NCBI GenBank assembly: GCA_039804105.1
Contig: JBDRZU010000001.1
Location: 1,184,001 to 1,248,000 of the forward strand
Source of the DNA: a candidate division WOR-3 bacterium
GTDB lineage: Bacteria > Hydrothermota > 32-111
Length of the DNA stretch: 64,000 nt
Direction of reading: 5' to 3'
Shown: positions 6,415 through 59,370 of the stretch, piece by piece
How positions within the stretch are numbered: the stretch's first letter is position 1
Layout of the letters: every line of letters begins with the position of its first letter
Position numbers and translations under genes: made by a program
The notes under the pieces: generated by a model
Database searches by the model: none
Told to the model about the DNA's origin: nothing
The model's input: the letters and a program-made list of their open reading frames with translations, nothing else

Positions 6415-6948
6415 TTAAAGTTTTATAAGAACTGGTTTATTTATTTTTTTCCAGTAAACGATATCGCCTTTAAAATTTTTATCTTTCATAAAAGTTTTAA
6501 GTTCTTCCTCTTTTAAAAACGCTCTTGATAAAACAAGATCAAAATCAGAAAAATTTATACTGTTAACATCGTCATTTTTTATCATAACATTTTTTAAACC
6601 AAGGGATTCTTTCACCTCTTTTAAAAAATAGCATTTTTTTTCTTTTATCTCAATAAGTGTAAAATTTTTTTCTTTAAAAACAATTGCAAGCGGTATTGCT
6701 GGAAATCCGTTTCCACTACCAATATCAACAATATTTTTATATTTGGGTTCACAAACAAAATTCAACGCTAAAAGAGAGTCCCTGAAATGTCTTTCAACGA
6801 TAATATCTATATCATTTTTTGAAATCAGGTTAACAGATTCGTTCCATTTCAACAGAAGGTCTAAATAAATGGCCATCTCTTGAAAATTTTTTTCAACTTT
6901 TAGTTCTCTTAAAAGTTTTTCTAACTGATTTAAAATAATAACTTGCAT
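6415..6948 (-). CDS. rsmG: 16S rRNA m7G527 methyltransferase (short form)
   Basis: KWNESVNL, RHFRDSL, DIGSGNGFP, SRAF; next to parA. Confidence 0.9.
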   Translation of the reverse strand: MQVIILNQLEKLLRELKVEKNFQEMAIYLDLLLKWNESVNLISKNDIDIIVERHFRDSLLALNFVCEPKYKNIVDIGSGNGFPAIPLAIVFKEKNFTLIEIKEKKCYFLKEVKESLGLKNVMIKNDDVNSINFSDFDLVLSRAFLKEEELKTFMKDKNFKGDIVYWKKINKPVLIKL

Positions 6949-6949
6949 A

Positions 6950-6978
6950 AAAATGTCAAAAAGTCAAGCACCGTCCCC
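6950..6978 (-). repeat. Dispersed 29-bp element, copy 1 (GGGGACGGTGCTTGACTTTTTGACATTTT)
   Basis: Identical to copies at 52875-52903 and 58772-58800; supplies the GDGA-stop of ORF 6964..7890. Confidence 0.95.
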
Positions 6979-7890
6979 GACATTAATTTCCTTTATCAGA
7001 TTGAGGGAGGTTTCGGTTCGTTTGGAGTAGAAAACCATCTTTTTTAAAAATTCTTGAAAATCTCTTTCATCATCTCCGAGAAATATTCCAACTGGTCCTT
7101 TTTTATCCTCTATCTGATAAATTCTTTCTTTCTTTGAAAGTTCTAAAAGTTTTTTGTTATCCTCTTTATCTCTTCCGATAAATCCAAGAGATTTTTCAAA
7201 TTTTATCAACCTGCAATGTTTTACCATTTTAAAATATCTTTCTTCCTTTACATCAAACTCTAATAGAATTTTTATCTTTTGAGAATATTCTTTATAAGTC
7301 AAAAGACATCCTCCAGAAGGAGATGAAAAATATTTTATGTTGTATTTCTTTGCAAGATCGAGTTGTATATCTCTTTTTCTTCCTTCAATTGAAAAAAATT
7401 TTTTATCTTTAAAAAATTCGTTCGTTTCAAATTTATCTTTTAAAATCTCTTCTGAAAGGGGTCTTACTAGAAGATCTTTTCTTTTCAAAAGTTTTTCTAT
7501 CTTTTTCAACCCTTGAAATGTTTGTGACATTGGCCTCTGATTTAAAACTTCTCCTGTTGAAACATATTTAAAATCATTTTCAATAGCAATATCTGTTGCT
7601 TTGTTTATCATAAACGCCTTACAATCTATGCATGGGTTCAAATTTTTTCCATAACCATAAATTGGTCTTTTCAAAATTTTTAAATACTCATCGAAAACAT
7701 TTTCGATAACAAGTTCTATATTGTTTTTATCTGCAATCTCTTTTGCTTTCTCAGATGAAAAAAATGGTGTTTCAAAATAAATAGTGAGAGGGTTGTGTCC
7801 CAATTCTTTTAAAATAAAATATGATATTATTGAATCAAGACCACCAGAAAAAAGGTGTACTCCATCGAAATTTTTATTGAGTTTCTTCAA
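6964..7890 (-). CDS. PP-loop tRNA thiolation-like protein (ThiI/MnmA-related)
   Basis: SGGLDS PP-loop, NPCIDC, TGEVLNQRPMSQ, GGCLLT. Confidence 0.8.
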   Translation of the reverse strand: MKKLNKNFDGVHLFSGGLDSIISYFILKELGHNPLTIYFETPFFSSEKAKEIADKNNIELVIENVFDEYLKILKRPIYGYGKNLNPCIDCKAFMINKATDIAIENDFKYVSTGEVLNQRPMSQTFQGLKKIEKLLKRKDLLVRPLSEEILKDKFETNEFFKDKKFFSIEGRKRDIQLDLAKKYNIKYFSSPSGGCLLTYKEYSQKIKILLEFDVKEERYFKMVKHCRLIKFEKSLGFIGRDKEDNKKLLELSKKERIYQIEDKKGPVGIFLGDDERDFQEFLKKMVFYSKRTETSLNLIKEINVGDGA

Positions 7891-50880: not shown

Positions 50881-52869
50881 ATGAAAAAAGTTTTGTTGTT
50901 TGCTTCAATACTGGGTTACTTTATGTATCTTTTTCCAGTGTTTGATTGTATTGAGATCAAAGAAAACAATACAGGTTATTATATTTCCAATCGTGGAAAC
51001 AATTTCCTTAACATTTATCCTATTAACAGAACTTTTTACTGGCCAGTCAATTATACTTCTGAAACTTATATGTTCGGTTCTGGGTTTGCTTTTGGAACAA
51101 TATGTTTGAATGATACTCTCTATTCAACTGGAGATGATTTATCTCATCCCGGTATATCAGATTTTGTTCCAGGTGATGGATCTGATAACCCGGCACCTTA
51201 TGACGATCCATTTTTCAGAATATATAAAAGTTATGATATACATTATCCTGTTGATTCAACACTTTCTCTTGTTGATGTTTATTGTGTTTATAATGATCTG
51301 GATAGTTCTTATAGATGGATTTCTTATTCATCACCTGTAAGAATAGTTGTTGAGCAACAATTGTATAATTTCAGAGCACCAAAAGTTGAAAATATGATTT
51401 TTATGAACTTTAAAATAAAAAATAAAAATACCGGTAATTTTGAAAAATCTTATTTCAGTTTTTGGGCTGATCCTGATATAGGAAGTGATTATTACAACGA
51501 ACTTTTAGGATTTGTTGAAGATGAGGATATAGTTTATCAGTTTCAACTTGAAGGTGAATCGGGATGGCATGATACTCCAGGTATCATTTCCTTTAAACTT
51601 TTGCAGGGTCCTATAGCAACAGAAACAGTTGATGTTTATCACGATGGAAGTAAAATCATTTTACCCTTTCAACCAATCTGTTTAACACAGTTCAGAAATG
51701 TTAATTATACAACCTATCCAGCAGATATCGAAAAGAGATATCTCTTATCAGCAGGTTATAAATTCTGGGAATTTGACTCATTGAATCCTGAGAATTCCTA
51801 TGAGCCATTTCCTCTCTGGACACAATCTCTTTCAGGTTACCCTGGCAAAAATCTGGACTCCACGAGTGCTGGAAATAAATCGTTAATTTTTTCTTCAGGT
51901 CCTTTCGATCTGAATGCGAACGATAGCATGAGTGTTTCGATGGTTGTTTATCTAACAAAATCTCCGGATAGCATTATTTCCCTTGGAAATTTAGCAAAAT
52001 GGTGGTGGAAAAACAGAAATACAAAATATTTACAGTTTCTAACACCTTTGAATTTACAAAAAATTTCATCTCAAACTATCTTTTCATGGGTTGGGAATAT
52101 AACTTTTCCAAAATATTCTTTACATTTTTTAAACCTTTCAACAGGAGTATGGTATGATGTTAAAGATTTAACCACAAACTCCTATTTGTTTAACCCAGCA
52201 ACTTTTAACGATGCTGTTTATCTATGTGGTGTTGGAGGATACACTGATACAAGTTTTATTGGAGATAAAAATCATCTTTACATTCTTGTAGACAATGCTG
52301 GTAAAAATGGTCCTCCTTATATTTATTCTTATGAAAAAAGTTTAACTGATGATAGTATAATCACATTAAAATGGAAAACACTTGATCCTGATGACAATCT
52401 ATCGAACAGTTATATCTACTTTGTTTCATCAACGAACGATTCTGTTTACAAAAAGACATTTGAAAAGACGGATACGATCTTTTCTTTAAATCTTGTTCAA
52501 TCTTTACCAGAGGATAACTACAAAATAGTTTTGATTTCAGTTGATGATTCTCTTCTTTCCGATACATCAATTGTTTACCATGAATTCTTCTTGTCAGGAA
52601 TCGATTATGATAGAAAAATTGAAAACAAAAATATTTTCACATTCAAAGTTTTGCAGAAAAAAGATTTGATTGAACTTATCGTTGAAGGTAAAAAAGATGA
52701 TGTTGAAATTTCGTTGTATAACATTGAAGGAAGAAAGATGGAAAACATCTACTCCGGCTCTGTTGATGGAACATTCAGAATCACAAGAAAACTGAATTTG
52801 CCCTGCGGAATATATTTTATAAAAGAAAAAACAACACGCAAGATACAGCATATCTACCTGATAAAATAA
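50881..52869 (+). CDS. Secreted protein with T9SS-like CTD, unknown function
   Basis: AGGAG RBS, signal peptide, WADPDIG and SSGPFDL segments, LYNIEGR..GIYFIK. Confidence 0.7.
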   Translation: MKKVLLFASILGYFMYLFPVFDCIEIKENNTGYYISNRGNNFLNIYPINRTFYWPVNYTSETYMFGSGFAFGTICLNDTLYSTGDDLSHPGISDFVPGDGSDNPAPYDDPFFRIYKSYDIHYPVDSTLSLVDVYCVYNDLDSSYRWISYSSPVRIVVEQQLYNFRAPKVENMIFMNFKIKNKNTGNFEKSYFSFWADPDIGSDYYNELLGFVEDEDIVYQFQLEGESGWHDTPGIISFKLLQGPIATETVDVYHDGSKIILPFQPICLTQFRNVNYTTYPADIEKRYLLSAGYKFWEFDSLNPENSYEPFPLWTQSLSGYPGKNLDSTSAGNKSLIFSSGPFDLNANDSMSVSMVVYLTKSPDSIISLGNLAKWWWKNRNTKYLQFLTPLNLQKISSQTIFSWVGNITFPKYSLHFLNLSTGVWYDVKDLTTNSYLFNPATFNDAVYLCGVGGYTDTSFIGDKNHLYILVDNAGKNGPPYIYSYEKSLTDDSIITLKWKTLDPDDNLSNSYIYFVSSTNDSVYKKTFEKTDTIFSLNLVQSLPEDNYKIVLISVDDSLLSDTSIVYHEFFLSGIDYDRKIENKNIFTFKVLQKKDLIELIVEGKKDDVEISLYNIEGRKMENIYSGSVDGTFRITRKLNLPCGIYFIKEKTTRKIQHIYLIK

Positions 52870-52874
52870 AGATC

Positions 52875-52903
52875 GGGGACGGTGCTTGACTTTTTGACAT
52901 TTT
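52875..52903 (+). repeat. Dispersed 29-bp element, copy 2
   Basis: GGGGACGGTGCTTGACTTTTTGACATTTT, 5 nt after a stop codon and just before the rRNA promoters. Confidence 0.95.
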
Positions 52904-53042: not shown

Positions 53043-53626
53043 TTTTATCCTTTTAAAATTTGATTGATCTTTGACATTTTGAATTTTGTGGAAAGGCATC
53101 TTATGGATTAAGATACTAAGAGTATGTGGGGAATGCCTTGGCACAGATAGGCGATGAAGGACGTAGCAGGCTGCGATAAGCCTCGGGGAGCCGCCAAGCG
53201 GGCTTAGATCCGAGGATCTCCGAATGGGGAAACCTTATACGGTAAACCCGTATAGTCCATGAATGAATACATAGTTCATGGTCGCCAACTCAGGGAAGTG
53301 AAACATCTCAGTACCTGAAGGAAAAGAAAACAAAAGTGATTCCCTAAGTAGTGGTGAGCGAAAGGGGAAGAGCCCAAACCGAGATGTATGTAAGGCTGCA
53401 ACCGTTGTACATCCGGTGTTGTGGGACCTGATAGACCGAGTGCAGTGAGGTCAAAAGGTTACAAATTGTTTGATTAGCAGAACTTGTCTGGAATGGCAGG
53501 CCATAGAAGGTGAAAGCCCGGTATGCAAAAATCAAACAACCTTTTTCAGGTATCCCAAGTACCACGGGACACGTGAAATCTTGTGGGAATCTGGGAGGAC
53601 CACCTCCTAAGGCTAAATACTCATCT

Positions 53627-53674
<48 letters not shown>

Positions 53675-54284
53675 TGGCGGGGAGTGAAATAGAATCTGAA
53701 ACCACATACTTACAATCAGTTGGAGGGCTACATTTCGGGCAACCGAAATATGCCTGACAGCGTACCTTTTGCATAATGGACCGGCGAGTTACTCTATGTT
53801 GCGAGGTTAAGTGAAAGTAATCACGGAACCGTAGCGAAAGCGAGTCCGAATAGGGCGTTTAGTAGCATGGAGTAGACCCGAAGCTGAACGAGCTATCCAT
53901 GGCCAGAGTGAAGTCGGGGTAACACCCGATGGAGGCTCGAACTAGTAACCCTTTAAAAGGTTTTGGATGAGCTGTGGATGGGAGTGAAAGGCTTAACAAG
54001 TTCAGTGATAGCTGGTTCTCCCCGAAATAGCTTTAGGGCTAGCCTCGGATGGTCAGTATTGGGGGTAGAGCTCTGAAAAGGTTAGGGTGTCACAAGCATA
54101 CCGACCCTTATCAAACTACGAATCCTAATACTCAAAATCCGGGAGTCAGGCAGTGGGGGCTAAGCTTCATTGCCGAGAGGGAAACAACCCAGACCGTCAG
54201 TTAAGGTCCCAAAATATAGGCTAAGTGGTAAAGGATGTGAAATTACCCAGACAGCCAGGATGTTGGCTTAGAAGCAGCCATACA

Positions 54285-54318
<34 letters not shown>

Positions 54319-55098
54319 GTTTTGCGCCTAAAATTTAACGGGGCTTAAGCCTATTACCGAAACTGCGGAACAAGTTTTACTTGTTTGTAGGGGAGCGTTC
54401 TGTTGACGTTGAAGCGGTATCGCAAGGGGCCGTGGAGTTAACAGAAGTGAAAATGCCGGTATGAGTAGTGATAAAGCGGGCGAGAAACCCGCTCACCGAA
54501 AATCCAAGGTTTCCTGGGGAAGGTTAATCCTCCCAGGGTTAGTCGGTGCCTAAGGTGAGGCCGAAAGGCGTAATCGATGGACAACAGGTTAATATTCCTG
54601 TACCACCATTGTTTCGTTTGACTGAAGTGGGGGTGCAGAAGGGTAGACCTACCAGTTAGTGGATATACTGGGCCAAGCAGGTAGGAGGAAAGAGCAGGCA
54701 AATCCACTCTTTCGTTAACTCCGAGATGTGATGGCGAGCTCATTAGAGCGAAGTGGTTAATCCCATGCTGACAAGAAAAGCCACGTAGGGAGAAACGATG
54801 GTGACCGTACCGTAAACCGACACAGGTGGATGAGGAGAGAATCCTAAGGTGCTCGAGTTATCTCTCGTCAAGGAACTCGGCAATTTACCCCCGTAACTTC
54901 GGGAAATGGGGGACCTGACTTGGTGAAGGATTTACTCCGTAAGCTAAGTTGGGTCGCAGAGAAATGGCTCATGCGACTGTTTATCAAAAACACAGGACTC
55001 TGCAAAGTCGTGAAGACGACGTATAGGGTCTGACACCTGCCCGGTGCCGGAAGGTTAAGGGAAGAGGTCAGGTCAAGCAATTGGCCAAAGCTTTGAAC

Positions 55099-55872
<774 letters not shown>

Positions 55873-56115
55873 TATGAGCAGTGTCTCGACGAGAGGCTCG
55901 ACGAACATTGTAGTGGCGGTGAAGATGCCGCCTACCCGCAATCGGACAAAAAGACCCCGTGAACCTTTACTGCACCTTGATATTGGGTTTTGGTGAGGTA
56001 TGTGTAGGATAGGTGGGAGGCTGTGAAGCCGGGGCGTCAGCTTCGGTGGAGCCAACGGTGAAATACCACCCTTATCTTATTGAAATTCTAACTTGCTCCT
56101 GTAAGCCAGGGCAAG

Positions 56116-56150
<35 letters not shown>

Positions 56151-56296
56151 TCCTCCTAAAAGGTAACGGAGGAGCACGAAGGTTCCCTCAATGCGGTTGG
56201 TAATCGCATGTAGAGCGCAAAGGTATAAGGGAGCTTAACTGTGAGATCGACGGATCGAGCAGGAACGAAAGTTGGTCTTAGTGATCCGGTGGTTCC

Positions 56297-56353
<57 letters not shown>

Positions 56354-56366
56354 TCCCCCAAGAGTC

Positions 56367-56439
<73 letters not shown>

Positions 56440-56460
56440 GGTCTGTTCGCCCATTAAAGT

Positions 56461-56503
<43 letters not shown>

Positions 56504-56843
56504 GTATCCATTGTGGGCGTATGAAATCTGAGGGTGTGCTGTCCCTAGTACGAAAGGACCGGGATGGGCAAACCTCCTGTGTACCAGTTGTCACGCCAGT
56601 GGCAGCGCTGGGTAGCAGTGTTTGTTCAGGATAACCGCTGAAAGCATCTAAGCGGGAAACCTACCCCAAGATAAGATTTCACTCCAGGTTTTCCTGGCGA
56701 AGGCTCCTGGGAGACTACCAGGTTGATAGGCTGCAAGTGTAAGTGCGGTAACGCATTCAGCTGAGCAGTACTAATAGGCCGAGAGTCTTAATCCTTAAGT
56801 TGTCTTTCTACAAATTCAAATGTCTTTAAATGTTATATAAATT

Positions 56844-56960
<117 letters not shown>

Positions 56961-57029
56961 TTTTTTATTTTTTATATCCATTTTTATTAAATCAATACCC
57001 AAAATTTTATGTAAATAAGGAGAATATGA

Positions 57030-57539: not shown

Positions 57540-58730
57540 TTATCTTTTTGTTTTCATAATAAAAATTATAGAAAATAAACTACCTGAAAGAGATGTTAAA
57601 ATTGTAATTCCTCTGGAATTTATTCTTAAATTTGAAAAGATTACAACTGCGAAAATAAAAAAGGTAAAAAAGACAAAAAATAATAAAATTTTTAAATATC
57701 TAAAATTTAAAAATTTATCTGAAAAATGTAAAGGGATCAGAGAAGAAACAAGAAAAACAAAAAAAACATAATTTACAATAGTCAAAACAAATCTAAATTT
57801 TTCATAAAAGTTTATATTGTTTTCTGTAATTAAATAGAAGGAATGATACCCTGAGAAAGATGCCCAGAATTCAGGAATCAAACTTAATAAATATTGAAAT
57901 TTTTTGTTTAGATTTAATGATTTTGAATCTAAAAGAATATTGCTTCCATAACTCAAAAATTCAATTTTTTTGTTACAACTTAAATCATTCAATAATTGTT
58001 CCATATTTTTGATATCTTCTAATTTTTCAAACTCATAAGAATGAATATTAACTACAATCATTACATTTTTTAATCTCACATTAAAATTTTTTTGAAAAAT
58101 TTCCTTCACTTCTTTTATCGTTGTAGTAAGAGGAAGATATTTAATATCTGAATTGATAGAAAAACCTCTGATTCCCGCAGATATAGTTTTAAAACCTGTC
58201 TTCTCCATAGCAATGATCGTATTTGAATCATATCCATTCCATGGGGGAATAAAAATTTGAATTTTCCTTTCAGTTATAGATTCTAAAAAAATTTTCCCTT
58301 CATTTAACATTTTAATTTGTGTATCAAGAGGCAAATAGTTAAATTCATATTTAAATCTTCTATCAAAAGAATTATTTTTATGTGTATGTCCATGTAAAGC
58401 AAAAGTGAAAAAATCTACATTTTTGTATTCTGAAATCAAACTTATTTTTTTCTGATTGATTGGTTCAATTCTATTATTTTCGTCCATTGTGAAAGGAACT
58501 ACTCCGACTATAAGAGGAATGGAAAGTTTTGAAAAAGTTTCAAATACTTTTTCTTCAACTCTTATATTGGAGTTATCGGAATAGTCATCCATTCTAAACA
58601 CAAGATTTATCTTTTTATTGTTATTGGATGTGTTTATAAGAAATACCTGAATTAGAATCGAAAAAAACAATATTATAATAAAAACTTTTTTTAAAAAGAA
58701 ATTTGACATTTTTTGATCATTTAACCTCAA
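57540..58730 (-). CDS. Membrane-anchored polysaccharide deacetylase-like protein (DUF2334-type)
   Basis: FRMDD, LHGHTH, FIPPWN motifs; TM segments at both ends; start uncertain. Confidence 0.7.
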   Translation of the reverse strand: MRLNDQKMSNFFLKKVFIIILFFSILIQVFLINTSNNNKKINLVFRMDDYSDNSNIRVEEKVFETFSKLSIPLIVGVVPFTMDENNRIEPINQKKISLISEYKNVDFFTFALHGHTHKNNSFDRRFKYEFNYLPLDTQIKMLNEGKIFLESITERKIQIFIPPWNGYDSNTIIAMEKTGFKTISAGIRGFSINSDIKYLPLTTTIKEVKEIFQKNFNVRLKNVMIVVNIHSYEFEKLEDIKNMEQLLNDLSCNKKIEFLSYGSNILLDSKSLNLNKKFQYLLSLIPEFWASFSGYHSFYLITENNINFYEKFRFVLTIVNYVFFVFLVSSLIPLHFSDKFLNFRYLKILLFFVFFTFFIFAVVIFSNLRINSRGITILTSLSGSLFSIIFIMKTKR

Positions 58731-58771: not shown

Positions 58772-58800
58772 AAAATGTCAAAAAGTCAAGCACCGTCCCC
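58772..58800 (-). repeat. Dispersed 29-bp element, copy 3
   Basis: Identical to copies 1 and 2; supplies the GDGA-stop of ORF 58786..59370. Confidence 0.95.
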
Positions 58801-59370
58801 ATTATTGAATTTTCTGTCGAGGAGGAGGAGGAAGGTGTCGAAGACAGAGTCGTTAAAGTTGTCGTTTGTGATTCTTAATCGTTTACCTGAAAAAATTGTG
58901 ATCTGTGAAAACAGGTACCTGTTTGCTTTTCCCCCAAGTAGAATGTTTACTATCTTTCTATTGATTTTTTCAAATCTGTCTATACCTGTTATTTCACTAT
59001 AAGGGATAAACTCTTCTTTTAAATTTTTACCTCTTTTTAAGAAGATACCTTTATCTGTTAAAAAAACAACTCTTATACCCTTCGTTTCCCAGACGATTTG
59101 ATCGATTATCATATAGATCACAAAAATTATAAAAATTACTGTGAGTGCGTGTTTTGTATACAACAATCTTATTTTCATCAGATTAAAGATGAAAAATCCA
59201 GCAATTATTGTTACAACAACCTTTACAAAAAGTTGCATCGGCAGAGAATCTGATCCCATCGCAAAAAAAGCACCTTCTGGAACATTATCTGTTAATACAG
59301 ATCTTTTTCTACCTGAATAGTTATTTTCGTCTTTCAGTATATAACCGTTATTATCAGTAAAGATTATCAT
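58786..59370 (-). CDS. Hypothetical membrane protein
   Basis: Two TM helices followed by a soluble domain. Confidence 0.6.
   Translation of the reverse strand: MIIFTDNNGYILKDENNYSGRKRSVLTDNVPEGAFFAMGSDSLPMQLFVKVVVTIIAGFFIFNLMKIRLLYTKHALTVIFIIFVIYMIIDQIVWETKGIRVVFLTDKGIFLKRGKNLKEEFIPYSEITGIDRFEKINRKIVNILLGGKANRYLFSQITIFSGKRLRITNDNFNDSVFDTFLLLLDRKFNNGDGA

Follow-up and report, generated by a model that had tools for sequence, protein, structure and literature searches.

The stretch of DNA analysed here, 64,000 nucleotides from a candidate division WOR-3 bacterium (assembly GCA_039804105.1, contig JBDRZU010000001.1, forward-strand positions 1,184,001 to 1,248,000; hereafter the window), contains three exact copies of a 29-bp element, GGGGACGGTGCTTGACTTTTTGACATTTT, where none would be expected from shuffled sequences. 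We confidently identify this element with the terminal inverted repeat (TIR) of a TIRtron, in which a single-copy RAYT-like HUH/Y1 gene of the TIRYT type lies between inverted TIRs (RAYT, REP-associated tyrosine transposase). An initial annotation of the window had reported that C-ending codons pile up just 5' of each copy, and had suggested that the element is a loading site for a machine that rewrites 30-130 nt on one side toward C. The pile-up is probably the coding face of a strand-specific, C-rich, G-poor tract of ~90 nt found only at the five oldest copies, beyond their GGGG end, and we do not think that an enzyme rewrites the flank. The best overall explanation, which we put forward tentatively, combines a TIRtron end, a tract confined to old copies, and selection for fold-back of the tract on the TIR.

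The genome that holds the window, here called G000, is 1.81 Mb in 2 contigs (C1 and C2), has 30.4% G+C and is 85% complete. G001, G002 and G003 are element-bearing sister species, and G004 is a member of the same genus, 99% complete, that is free of the element. Neighbouring genes were called from open reading frames (ORFs) of 80 codons or more.

The 29-bp element is the end of a probable TIRtron

A whole-genome scan that allowed up to 5 mismatches found 40 repeat copies in G000, 28 of them exact. Two exact copies in inverted orientation, at C1:1070314 (+) and 1071272 (-), have their GGGG ends outward and bracket a transposase gene of 305 aa (G000:C1:1070311-1071225), the whole unit being 987 bp long (G000:C1:1070314-1071300). 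The unit lies 113 kb before the window and hence outside it, in keeping with the annotation's remark that no candidate enzyme is encoded in the window. Its guess at an HUH/Y1 enzyme, one of several examples it gave, also fits. The bracketed gene is the only Y1_Tnp gene found in a genome-wide search of G000. The protein matches Y1_Tnp (PF01797) with 46.9 bits against a cut-off of 23, as do 6/6 homologues, and the HUH motif (H59, H61) and Y118 in IIYxLLNPV are invariant across the six. Its top NCBIfam match is REP_Tyr_transpos (REP-associated tyrosine transposase) at 59.7 bits, under the equivalog cut-off of 80. A PDB search with the single sequence gave no match. With a profile of the homologues the best solved relative was E. 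coli TnpA-REP (4ER8), a weak match (E = 0.22), and ISDra2 chains were also weak matches. The C-terminal extension of ~150 aa is conserved.

The unit sits exactly between a MarR gene and a glycosyltransferase gene, which adjoin in G004. The left TIR donates the MarR stop codon. The glycosyltransferase ORF (L073:3086-4339 (-) = G000:C1:1069086-1070339) has as its sole in-frame start an ATG in the reverse strand of the right repeat (MSKSQAPSP...); in G002 and G003 the start lies in a variant repeat (MSHCQAPSP...), and G004 has its own start. More generally, the outer end of a TIR can donate a stop to an incoming gene (GGG GAC GGT GCT TGA), and the opposite strand can donate a start (ATG TCA AAA...).

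Repeat and enzyme travel together among the relatives, the kind of pattern that the annotation had proposed to look for. G001 has 34 copies, G002 and G003 have 26 each, and G004 has 0 and no match to the G000 transposase protein. The pairing of transposase and repeat is drawn from this co-occurrence. The transposase homologues of G002 and G003 (65-66% identity) are bracketed by a repeat variant with an AGTG spacer, and those of two further genomes, G019 and G031 (~46% identity), by GGGGACGGGGTTTGAC... variants. Comparison of these variants resolves the repeat into two conserved boxes, GGGGACGGTGCTTGAC and TGACATTTT, flanking a 4-nt variable spacer. The repeat also occurs in metagenome-assembled genomes (MAGs) of other families and with other labels, where, in the manner of miniature transposons, inverted pairs of it stand tail to tail with 15-160 nt between them, and where it directly precedes transposase starts that read MRRAR... 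The transposases of these MAGs are only 49-52% identical to that of G000, while their TIR is 28/29 identical. The three copies in the window are, judged by sequence, solo TIRs, and the ~38 mostly solo TIRs of G000 have presumably been spread by this enzyme.

Some contigs of the relatives are odd in other respects. Two that are labelled archaeal (L063, L067) carry flanks orthologous to G000 loci and are probably mis-binned, and a G003 contig (L001; G003:C14:80136-83164) is 99.7-100% identical to G000 around the copy at C1:496160. For all three contigs, mis-binning or very recent transfer is the likely cause. Twelve G001 contigs, C4-C20 (L012-L023), are 542-1,010 bases long and have one TIR near the middle of each, with flanks orthologous to G000 sites, which is an odd assembly pattern.

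Comparison with known systems

The names TIRtron and TIRYT come from Di Nocera et al. (2013; PMC3733652), who used them for RAYT-like genes with TIRs on either side in place of palindromic REPs; in the portions of that paper available to us, the motif GGGGWSAS recurs in several of the TIRs, which also form dispersed families. The TIRYTs are identified by Quentin et al. (2018; PMC6006769), as far as the text at hand goes, with Y1 subclass 2.1, which has a C-terminal helix-turn-helix extension. Measured by these partial accounts, the G000 element is a further TIRtron case. A RAYT-like HUH/Y1 gene lies between TIRs with a GGGG tip, the TIR family is dispersed and moderately abundant as singles, dimers and clusters, and the G000 protein, at 305 aa, is longer than classical RAYTs and has a long C-terminal extension. 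TIRYT membership is incomplete in two features: the tip GGGGACGG matches GGGGWSAS at 7/8 positions, with G, not A, at position 7, and the C-terminal half gives no match to Bac_DnaA_C, HTH_23 or HTH_28 at E <= 1 in 6 members. The host also differs, being an uncultured hot-spring lineage of the FCB group, as does the 28/29 identity of TIRs whose transposases are only ~50% identical. The one-sided C-rich flank of the old copies stands out from the known description, since it is unmentioned in the available parts of PMC3733652 and PMC6006769, no literature search having been aimed at it.

The unit also resembles the REP/RAYT systems and REPINs (Bertels and Rainey 2011; PMC3116915, PMC3337134, both as excerpted) in having a single-copy Y1 gene between inverted short repeats that are dispersed intergenically, in the inverted doublets of some genomes, and in the joint presence or absence of repeat and enzyme within a genus. 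It differs in that the 29-mer is not palindromic, has no self-complementarity and no GTAG tag, and has no conserved hairpin behind it, none being common to the folds of 72 copies; the REP_Tyr_transpos score likewise stays below its cut-off. The lack of palindrome and tag rules out a classical REP. GTAG-tagged REP-like hairpins (e.g., GCACCC-TAAA-GGGTGC, then GGCTAC) do adjoin some TIRs of G000 and of other MAGs, at G000:C1:470781, 1267564 and 1289173 and in L019, L021, L033 and L040, and seem to be a second repeat family linked to the TIR.

IS200/IS605 elements such as IS608 and ISDra2 have subterminal hairpins and no TIRs, and are multi-copy as whole elements. The likeness to them lies in HUH/Y1 chemistry on single-stranded DNA, and cleavage of one strand at the boundary would apply here by analogy only. 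Membership is ruled out by the TIRs and by an NF033573 score of 23.2 against a cut-off of 55.

Other readings of the 29-mer were tried and rejected. It holds TTGACT and TTGACA, yet neither copy 3 nor the transposase-proximal copy was assigned a -10 partner: the count of promoter-like sites (TTGACA plus a -10 hexamer at 16-18 nt) was 0 at copy 3, and those near the transposase gene avoid the repeat hexamers. A scan for intrinsic terminators (GC stem, 3-8 nt loop, T run) called none at copy 3, and a phage origin was set aside as viral contigs gave 0 matches to the repeat.

Placement of the copies and features of the window

In G000, 15 copies follow the end of a co-directional ORF and 25 face a divergent gene start; half of the copies (20/38) face a convergent gene end, another point against the promoter reading. 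The features of the window that bear on the repeat are as follows, locus A being copy 3 and locus B copy 1.

58772..58800, minus strand: copy 3, a solo TIR (locus A); exact match; the same site is filled in G001 and G002.
58786..59370, minus strand: copy 3 ORF, 194 aa, membrane protein; the last four codons and the stop (GDGA-stop) lie inside copy 3.
58807..58872, minus strand: C-rich, G-poor tract of locus A; 17/22 codons C-ending, 0 G-ending.
57540..58730, minus strand: gene downstream of copy 3, DUF2334 / polysaccharide-deacetylase-like; co-directional, with its start 41 nt past the repeat (longest-ORF call).
6950..6978, minus strand: copy 1, a solo TIR (locus B); exact match; the G001 site is filled by the same variant.
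6964..7890, minus strand: copy 1 ORF, 308 aa, PP-loop ATPase-like (ThiI / tRNA_Me_trans HUP domain); fused into copy 1 (...EINVGDGA-stop).
7003..7032, minus strand: C-rich tract of locus B; 7/10 codons C-ending.
6415..6948, minus strand: gene downstream of copy 1; co-directional, starting 2 nt after copy 1.
52875..52903, plus strand: copy 2, a solo TIR; exact match; flanked by a secreted-protein gene and by the promoter region of the 23S rRNA gene.
50881..52869, plus strand: ORF upstream of copy 2, 662 aa; its own TAA lies 5 nt before copy 2, and its tail is 52741-52866.

The annotation had placed the C-ending codons in coding DNA just before the element. The frames are indeed C-rich; at copies 1 and 3, though, the ORFs do not stop short of the element but run 15 nt into it and end at its internal TGA, with the tail ...GDGA. 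The 194-aa ORF at copy 3 matched no Pfam family. Its frame is confirmed by full-length homologues in another genus (39-41% identity), the C-terminal ITNDxFND...LL included, and two metagenome scans for locus A added one more relative only, a distant one (40% identity). The 308-aa ORF has orthologues in 13/14 relatives searched. At locus B, G002 and G003 carry the AGTG-spacer variant instead, 6 nt nearer the gene. The G004 counterpart of the gene behind copy 1 has a start codon that overlaps the upstream gene end, and it is the repeat that separates the two in G000. A search of G004 gave no true orthologue of the 662-aa ORF.

Strand-specific C-rich tracts lie outside the oldest copies

C makes up 10.4% of third codon positions in G000. 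Expected numbers of C-ending codons were computed from the amino acids of each stretch and genome codon usage. The annotation's counts at copies 1, 2 and 3 proved exact and lie far beyond chance. At copy 3 (58807-58872, minus frame) 17/22 codons end in C and 0 in G, with 3.2 C-ending codons expected (P = 2e-12); among 551,238 windows of 22 codons in 1,604 ORFs this stretch is the only one with 17. At copy 1 (7003-7032) the count is 7/10 against 0.93 expected (P = 5e-7), a value reached by 55 of 548,201 windows of 10 codons. The excess at copy 2 (52741-52866) is weak: 12/42 against 4.65 expected (P = 8e-4), with an empirical P(>=12) of 0.004 among 1,396 gene ends, and ~7/42, counted by eye, in the orthologue of a sister species (L012). 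When all 1,604 ORFs are ranked by the number of C-ending codons among their last 22, the copy-3 gene is first and the copy-1 gene second. The C bias is real at the codon ends that the annotation had singled out, and it is not confined to third positions: it belongs to a tract of DNA, and amino acids are altered too.

The annotation had the pile-up at each copy, and this does not hold genome-wide. The 14 co-directional gene ends within 35 nt of copies have 4, 0, 1, 1, 2, 7, 2, 0, 9, 5, 14, 2, 1 and 5 C-ending codons per last 22, with a null mean of 2.1, and one of these ORFs (before C2:421996) is spurious, lying in a CRISPR array. When the three old loci described below are removed, the other 10 co-directional copies show no C excess in any distance-bin comparison. 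An apparent case at G003:C7:6022 was removed as a false positive, the preceding 'ORF' being an antisense frame of a real gene. The sampled loci of G002 and G003 have a higher background than G000 (mean 2.8 C-ending per 22 codons, P(>=5) = 0.24), and counts of 4-6 per 22 therefore carry little meaning there. The pooled 5' flanks of the G000 copies are 13-17% C, close to the genome mean.

Flanks were then scored as zC, the C content of the flank relative to controls matched on neighbour type and distance. Copies were called old when both flanks gave BLAST matches to the 33 sampled copies of G002 and G003, and we infer that these are the older insertions. The old set consists of locus A, locus B, the MarR gene end (locus C), the glycosyltransferase gene start, and one non-coding site; locus C and the glycosyltransferase flank are the two outer flanks of the TIRtron. 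Among the 37 copies scored, the five old ones have zC values of 1.3-4.7, and the 32 others, which lack a C excess, average -0.23 (Mann-Whitney p = 0.0006); the mean for divergent flanks is -0.41. The tract follows the strand of the element, whichever strand the neighbouring gene occupies. As it does so in non-coding DNA as well as in genes of both orientations, its cause lies at the level of the DNA or of any transcript rather than of the codons. As the annotation stated, the C-rich segments are not similar to each other, at least at the level of BLAST, which found no similarity among the 5' flanks of the three loci. Of the 249 genomic occurrences of a shared flank motif, CCTTCCYY, 2 are located no more than 100 nt upstream of a copy, where 0.27 would be expected, too weak a signal to use.

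Three flanks can be compared with G004, where the genes are present and the element is absent: locus B, the MarR tail and the glycosyltransferase flank. At all three, G004 is without the C excess, as the annotation had predicted for orthologues lacking the element. At codons 11-20 from the stop of locus B, the four element-bearing species have 37-47% C, compared with 20% for G004 and 3-23% for four outgroups. Of the last 45 MarR codons, 10-14 are C-ending, compared with 4 in G004. With the glycosyltransferase gene on the opposite strand, the excess takes the form of G-ending codons, 10/30 in G000 against 3/30 in G004, with only 5 in G002 and 4 in G003. Pooling the three flanks for G000 and G004, C is gained at 36 sites and lost at 14 within the proximal 30 codons, and is gained at 54 and lost at 60 in the distal part (Fisher p = 0.004). 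The same proximal-distal test against G004 gave p = 9e-5 for G002 and p = 4e-4 for G003, the three tests not being independent as the species are kin. In element-bearing species C makes up 22-23% of the proximal part, compared with 13% in G004; for the distal part the figures are 12% and 13%. This proximal gain is drawn from both A and T; A>C differences between G000 and G004 are over-represented ~3x near the TIR (18/119 proximal vs 15/315 distal).

At the non-coding site the 90-nt flank has 19-30 C and 2-4 G in four species, and its sequence differs among them; intergenic windows of G004 have 5-10 C. The interval between an MBL-fold hydrolase gene and the TIR copy at this site holds four DnaA-box-like words (TT[AT]TCCACA) in 116 nt (L150:1367-1482 = G000:C1:279367-279482); G004 has two words and no TIR there. 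The interval is a candidate replication origin region. At locus A, the tract is conserved in G002, the differences being mostly synonymous C/T changes. The element-free homologues of locus A have 6-8 C-ending codons of the last 45, compared with 19-21 in element-bearing species, and the locus is not polarisable because these homologues, at 39-41% identity, are the only ones that lack the element. The neighbour genes of five other copies have no true orthologue in G004.

Several points weigh against the tract as a property acquired by old copies, in addition to the kinship of the species compared. Some of the C counted at the non-coding site belongs to the DnaA-box-like words, and the locus C motif TTC TTC CCC CAG is already partly present in G004. 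The use of BLAST-detectable flanks to define old copies favours conserved, less AT-rich flanks, which the matched controls correct in part. Finally, the state of G004 at the empty sites is assumed to be the ancestral one.

Origin of the tract

Selection for a pyrimidine-rich partner of the G-rich TIR tip is the single most likely origin of the tract, though we regard it as possible rather than probable. After insertion, the outer flank would evolve under selection for a pyrimidine-rich stretch able to fold back on the tip GGGGACGG in single-stranded DNA or RNA. The fold-back would bury the end that the transposase must cut, or would block read-through, and either effect could fix long-resident copies. 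In minimum-energy folds the C tract pairs with the tip in 5/5 gene-end contexts folded, and at locus A a 16-nt arm is unchanged between G000 and G002 while neighbouring synonymous sites differ. Against this, shuffled flanks pair equally well or better in 14-20% of shuffles at loci A, B and C, and across all 40 copies pairing does not exceed that of random genomic DNA (p = 0.64), so that the fold-back has no support beyond composition. At 15-28 nt the loops of these folds are long, the terminator scan was blank at copy 3, and there is a consistent mismatch (T opposite C6), unlike what pairing selection would favour. No covariation signal was obtainable because the TIR tip is invariant.

The reading closest to the annotation is mutagenesis anchored by the transposase. 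The Y1 enzyme would nick resident TIRs time and again, on the top strand and at their GGGG boundary; recutting would expose ~90 nt of host DNA to resection and to error-prone, biased resynthesis of the outer flank, leaving a C-biased footprint that grows with residence time. So acting as a local, strand-specific mutator, the transposase would let the flank drift to C (A>C, T>C) and, in doing so, would reshape adjoining host genes at their ends and starts. We know of no mutagenic Y1 transposase. Such a process would account for a one-sided, strand-specific tract that occurs in non-coding DNA as well as in genes on either strand, for its restriction to old copies, the outer flanks of the transposase's own unit included, and for its absence from the element-free congener at three flanks. 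It would also suit the surplus of A>C differences near the TIR and the non-coding flank that stays C-rich though its sequence differs between species. Synonymous differences are more frequent near the TIR at locus A (20/60 codons vs 22/120 farther, G000 vs G002) and in the MarR tail of locus C (18/45 vs 6/60, G000 vs G001), but there is no rise toward the repeat in 3 of 5 species-pair comparisons, a gradient being seen in 2/5 only. The 32 of 37 scored copies without C excess argue against it, as do eight ORF-fused copies in other MAGs, which have 6.0 C-ending codons per 22 near the repeat and 5.9 farther away, in ORFs that are unverified as genes. Two species share an unchanged C-rich arm at locus A, and no outgroup polarises the direction of change. 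The local excess of variants that the annotation had proposed to look for did not appear, there being no tract variant in the contigs of 3 public DNA runs, a weak test as contigs break at the repeat and hide rare variants; the runs listed for this DNA included none of RNA. Anchored mutagenesis as originally stated is not supported, and in the form given here we consider it unlikely.

Somewhat less likely again is that C-rich, G-poor tracts pre-existed and that the element inserts beside them, or that only such copies persist. Even in G004 the homologous bins are richer in C than the rest of their tails (20% at locus B; TTC TTC CCC CAG at locus C), and the different TIR variants found 6 nt apart in two lineages at locus B could be two insertions at a hot spot. 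G004 is, however, clearly lower in C at the three flanks, younger copies have no C-rich flank (mean zC -0.23 over 32), and outer flanks in other MAGs lack such a tract. An excess of C far above G is the hallmark of rut sites, and Rho-loading tracts, in which C-rich, G-poor RNA at gene ends is selected against read-through into the transposase gene or the next gene, would produce the C >> G of the tract. Rho is encoded in G000, a co-directional gene lies 1-46 nt behind the TIR at each of loci A, B and C, and the scan called no intrinsic terminator at copy 3. We nevertheless hold this improbable: the transcript of the glycosyltransferase flank would be G-rich with the same skew in the DNA, the non-coding site next to the DnaA boxes is skewed too, and the tract of locus B is only ~30 nt long. 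Coincidence, i.e., an odd choice of amino acids and codons in three unrelated gene tails beside a common repeat, gains something from the hypothesis having been framed after the same three copies were seen, from the weakness of copy 2, and from the two further apparent cases that were artefacts (the CRISPR array and the antisense frame). It has little chance of being correct, given that the top two of 1,604 gene ends both abut the repeat, that their P values are conditional on the amino acids, and that the independent TIRtron flanks and the non-coding site behave alike. The annotation knew of no described system with such a footprint, and thereby overlooked diversity-generating retroelements, to our knowledge the only known case of motif-anchored, one-sided rewriting of a gene's 3' end, in which a variable 3' gene end is anchored by a GC-rich initiation motif. 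These systems need a reverse transcriptase and a template repeat and are adenine-specific. The tract is likewise one-sided, anchored and at 3' coding ends, with AAC codons frequent at locus A. Neither an RVT_1 match nor a second, template-like copy of the tracts is present in G000, which refutes this reading for the assembled 85% of the genome, and the tract is conserved between species; we give a retroelement almost no credence.

Other features of the window and its surroundings

Copy 2 lies ahead of ribosomal genes. The 23S rRNA gene (window 53106-56795, plus strand) is 3,690 nt long against a model of 2,925 positions, with ~760 extra bases as insertions, and is followed by the 5S rRNA gene (window 56845-56961, plus strand). 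These were the only known RNA families found in the window and 34 kb of neighbouring loci. The 3' end of the 16S gene (...ggatcacctcctt) is far off, near C1:1149.5 kb, and the rRNA genes thus appear to be unlinked.

Just before the window, G000:C1:1175566-1183308 holds three ORFs that resemble type I restriction-modification genes by motif reading, with unusually many C-ending codons throughout. The bracketing of these C-rich ORFs by TIRs at 1175529 and 1183544 suggests a foreign island. TIRs are densely clustered at G000:C1:1266567-1290814 (10 in 25 kb, 18-43 kb past the window end) and at G001:C3:273465-279129 (9 in 6 kb). The clustered TIRs lie between short genes and ~100-nt paralogous units that end in terminator-like hairpins; such units stand behind the copies at C1:472958, 1271976 and 1286465. 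A CRISPR-like array occupies the end of contig C2 (L075:2567-4018, ~420.5-422.0 kb), seen as a periodic 'ILLEMFLWSSPS' in spurious ORFs, with a repeat copy right behind it. The 92 nt downstream of this copy are identical to C1:1387216, so that two contig ends share a repeat.

Significance

The repeats of RAYT and TIRYT systems are among the commonest unexplained short repeats of bacteria, and their effects on their surroundings are poorly known. In the present case the TIR is near letter-perfect while the transposase diverges to ~50% identity, and it is squeezed into narrow gaps between genes, which it provides with stop and start codons. The oldest copies have a one-sided, strand-specific C-rich flank that is missing in the element-free congener. 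If the flank is selected, it would be a way for hosts or elements to immobilise old copies. A resident transposase that acts as a mutator, which we think doubtful, would leave a transposase-anchored footprint that is not known for REP/RAYT, TIRYT or IS200/IS605 systems and is unmentioned in the available parts of PMC3733652 and PMC6006769. A flank of mutational origin would, if true, represent a new kind of site-anchored mutagenesis tied to an HUH enzyme.

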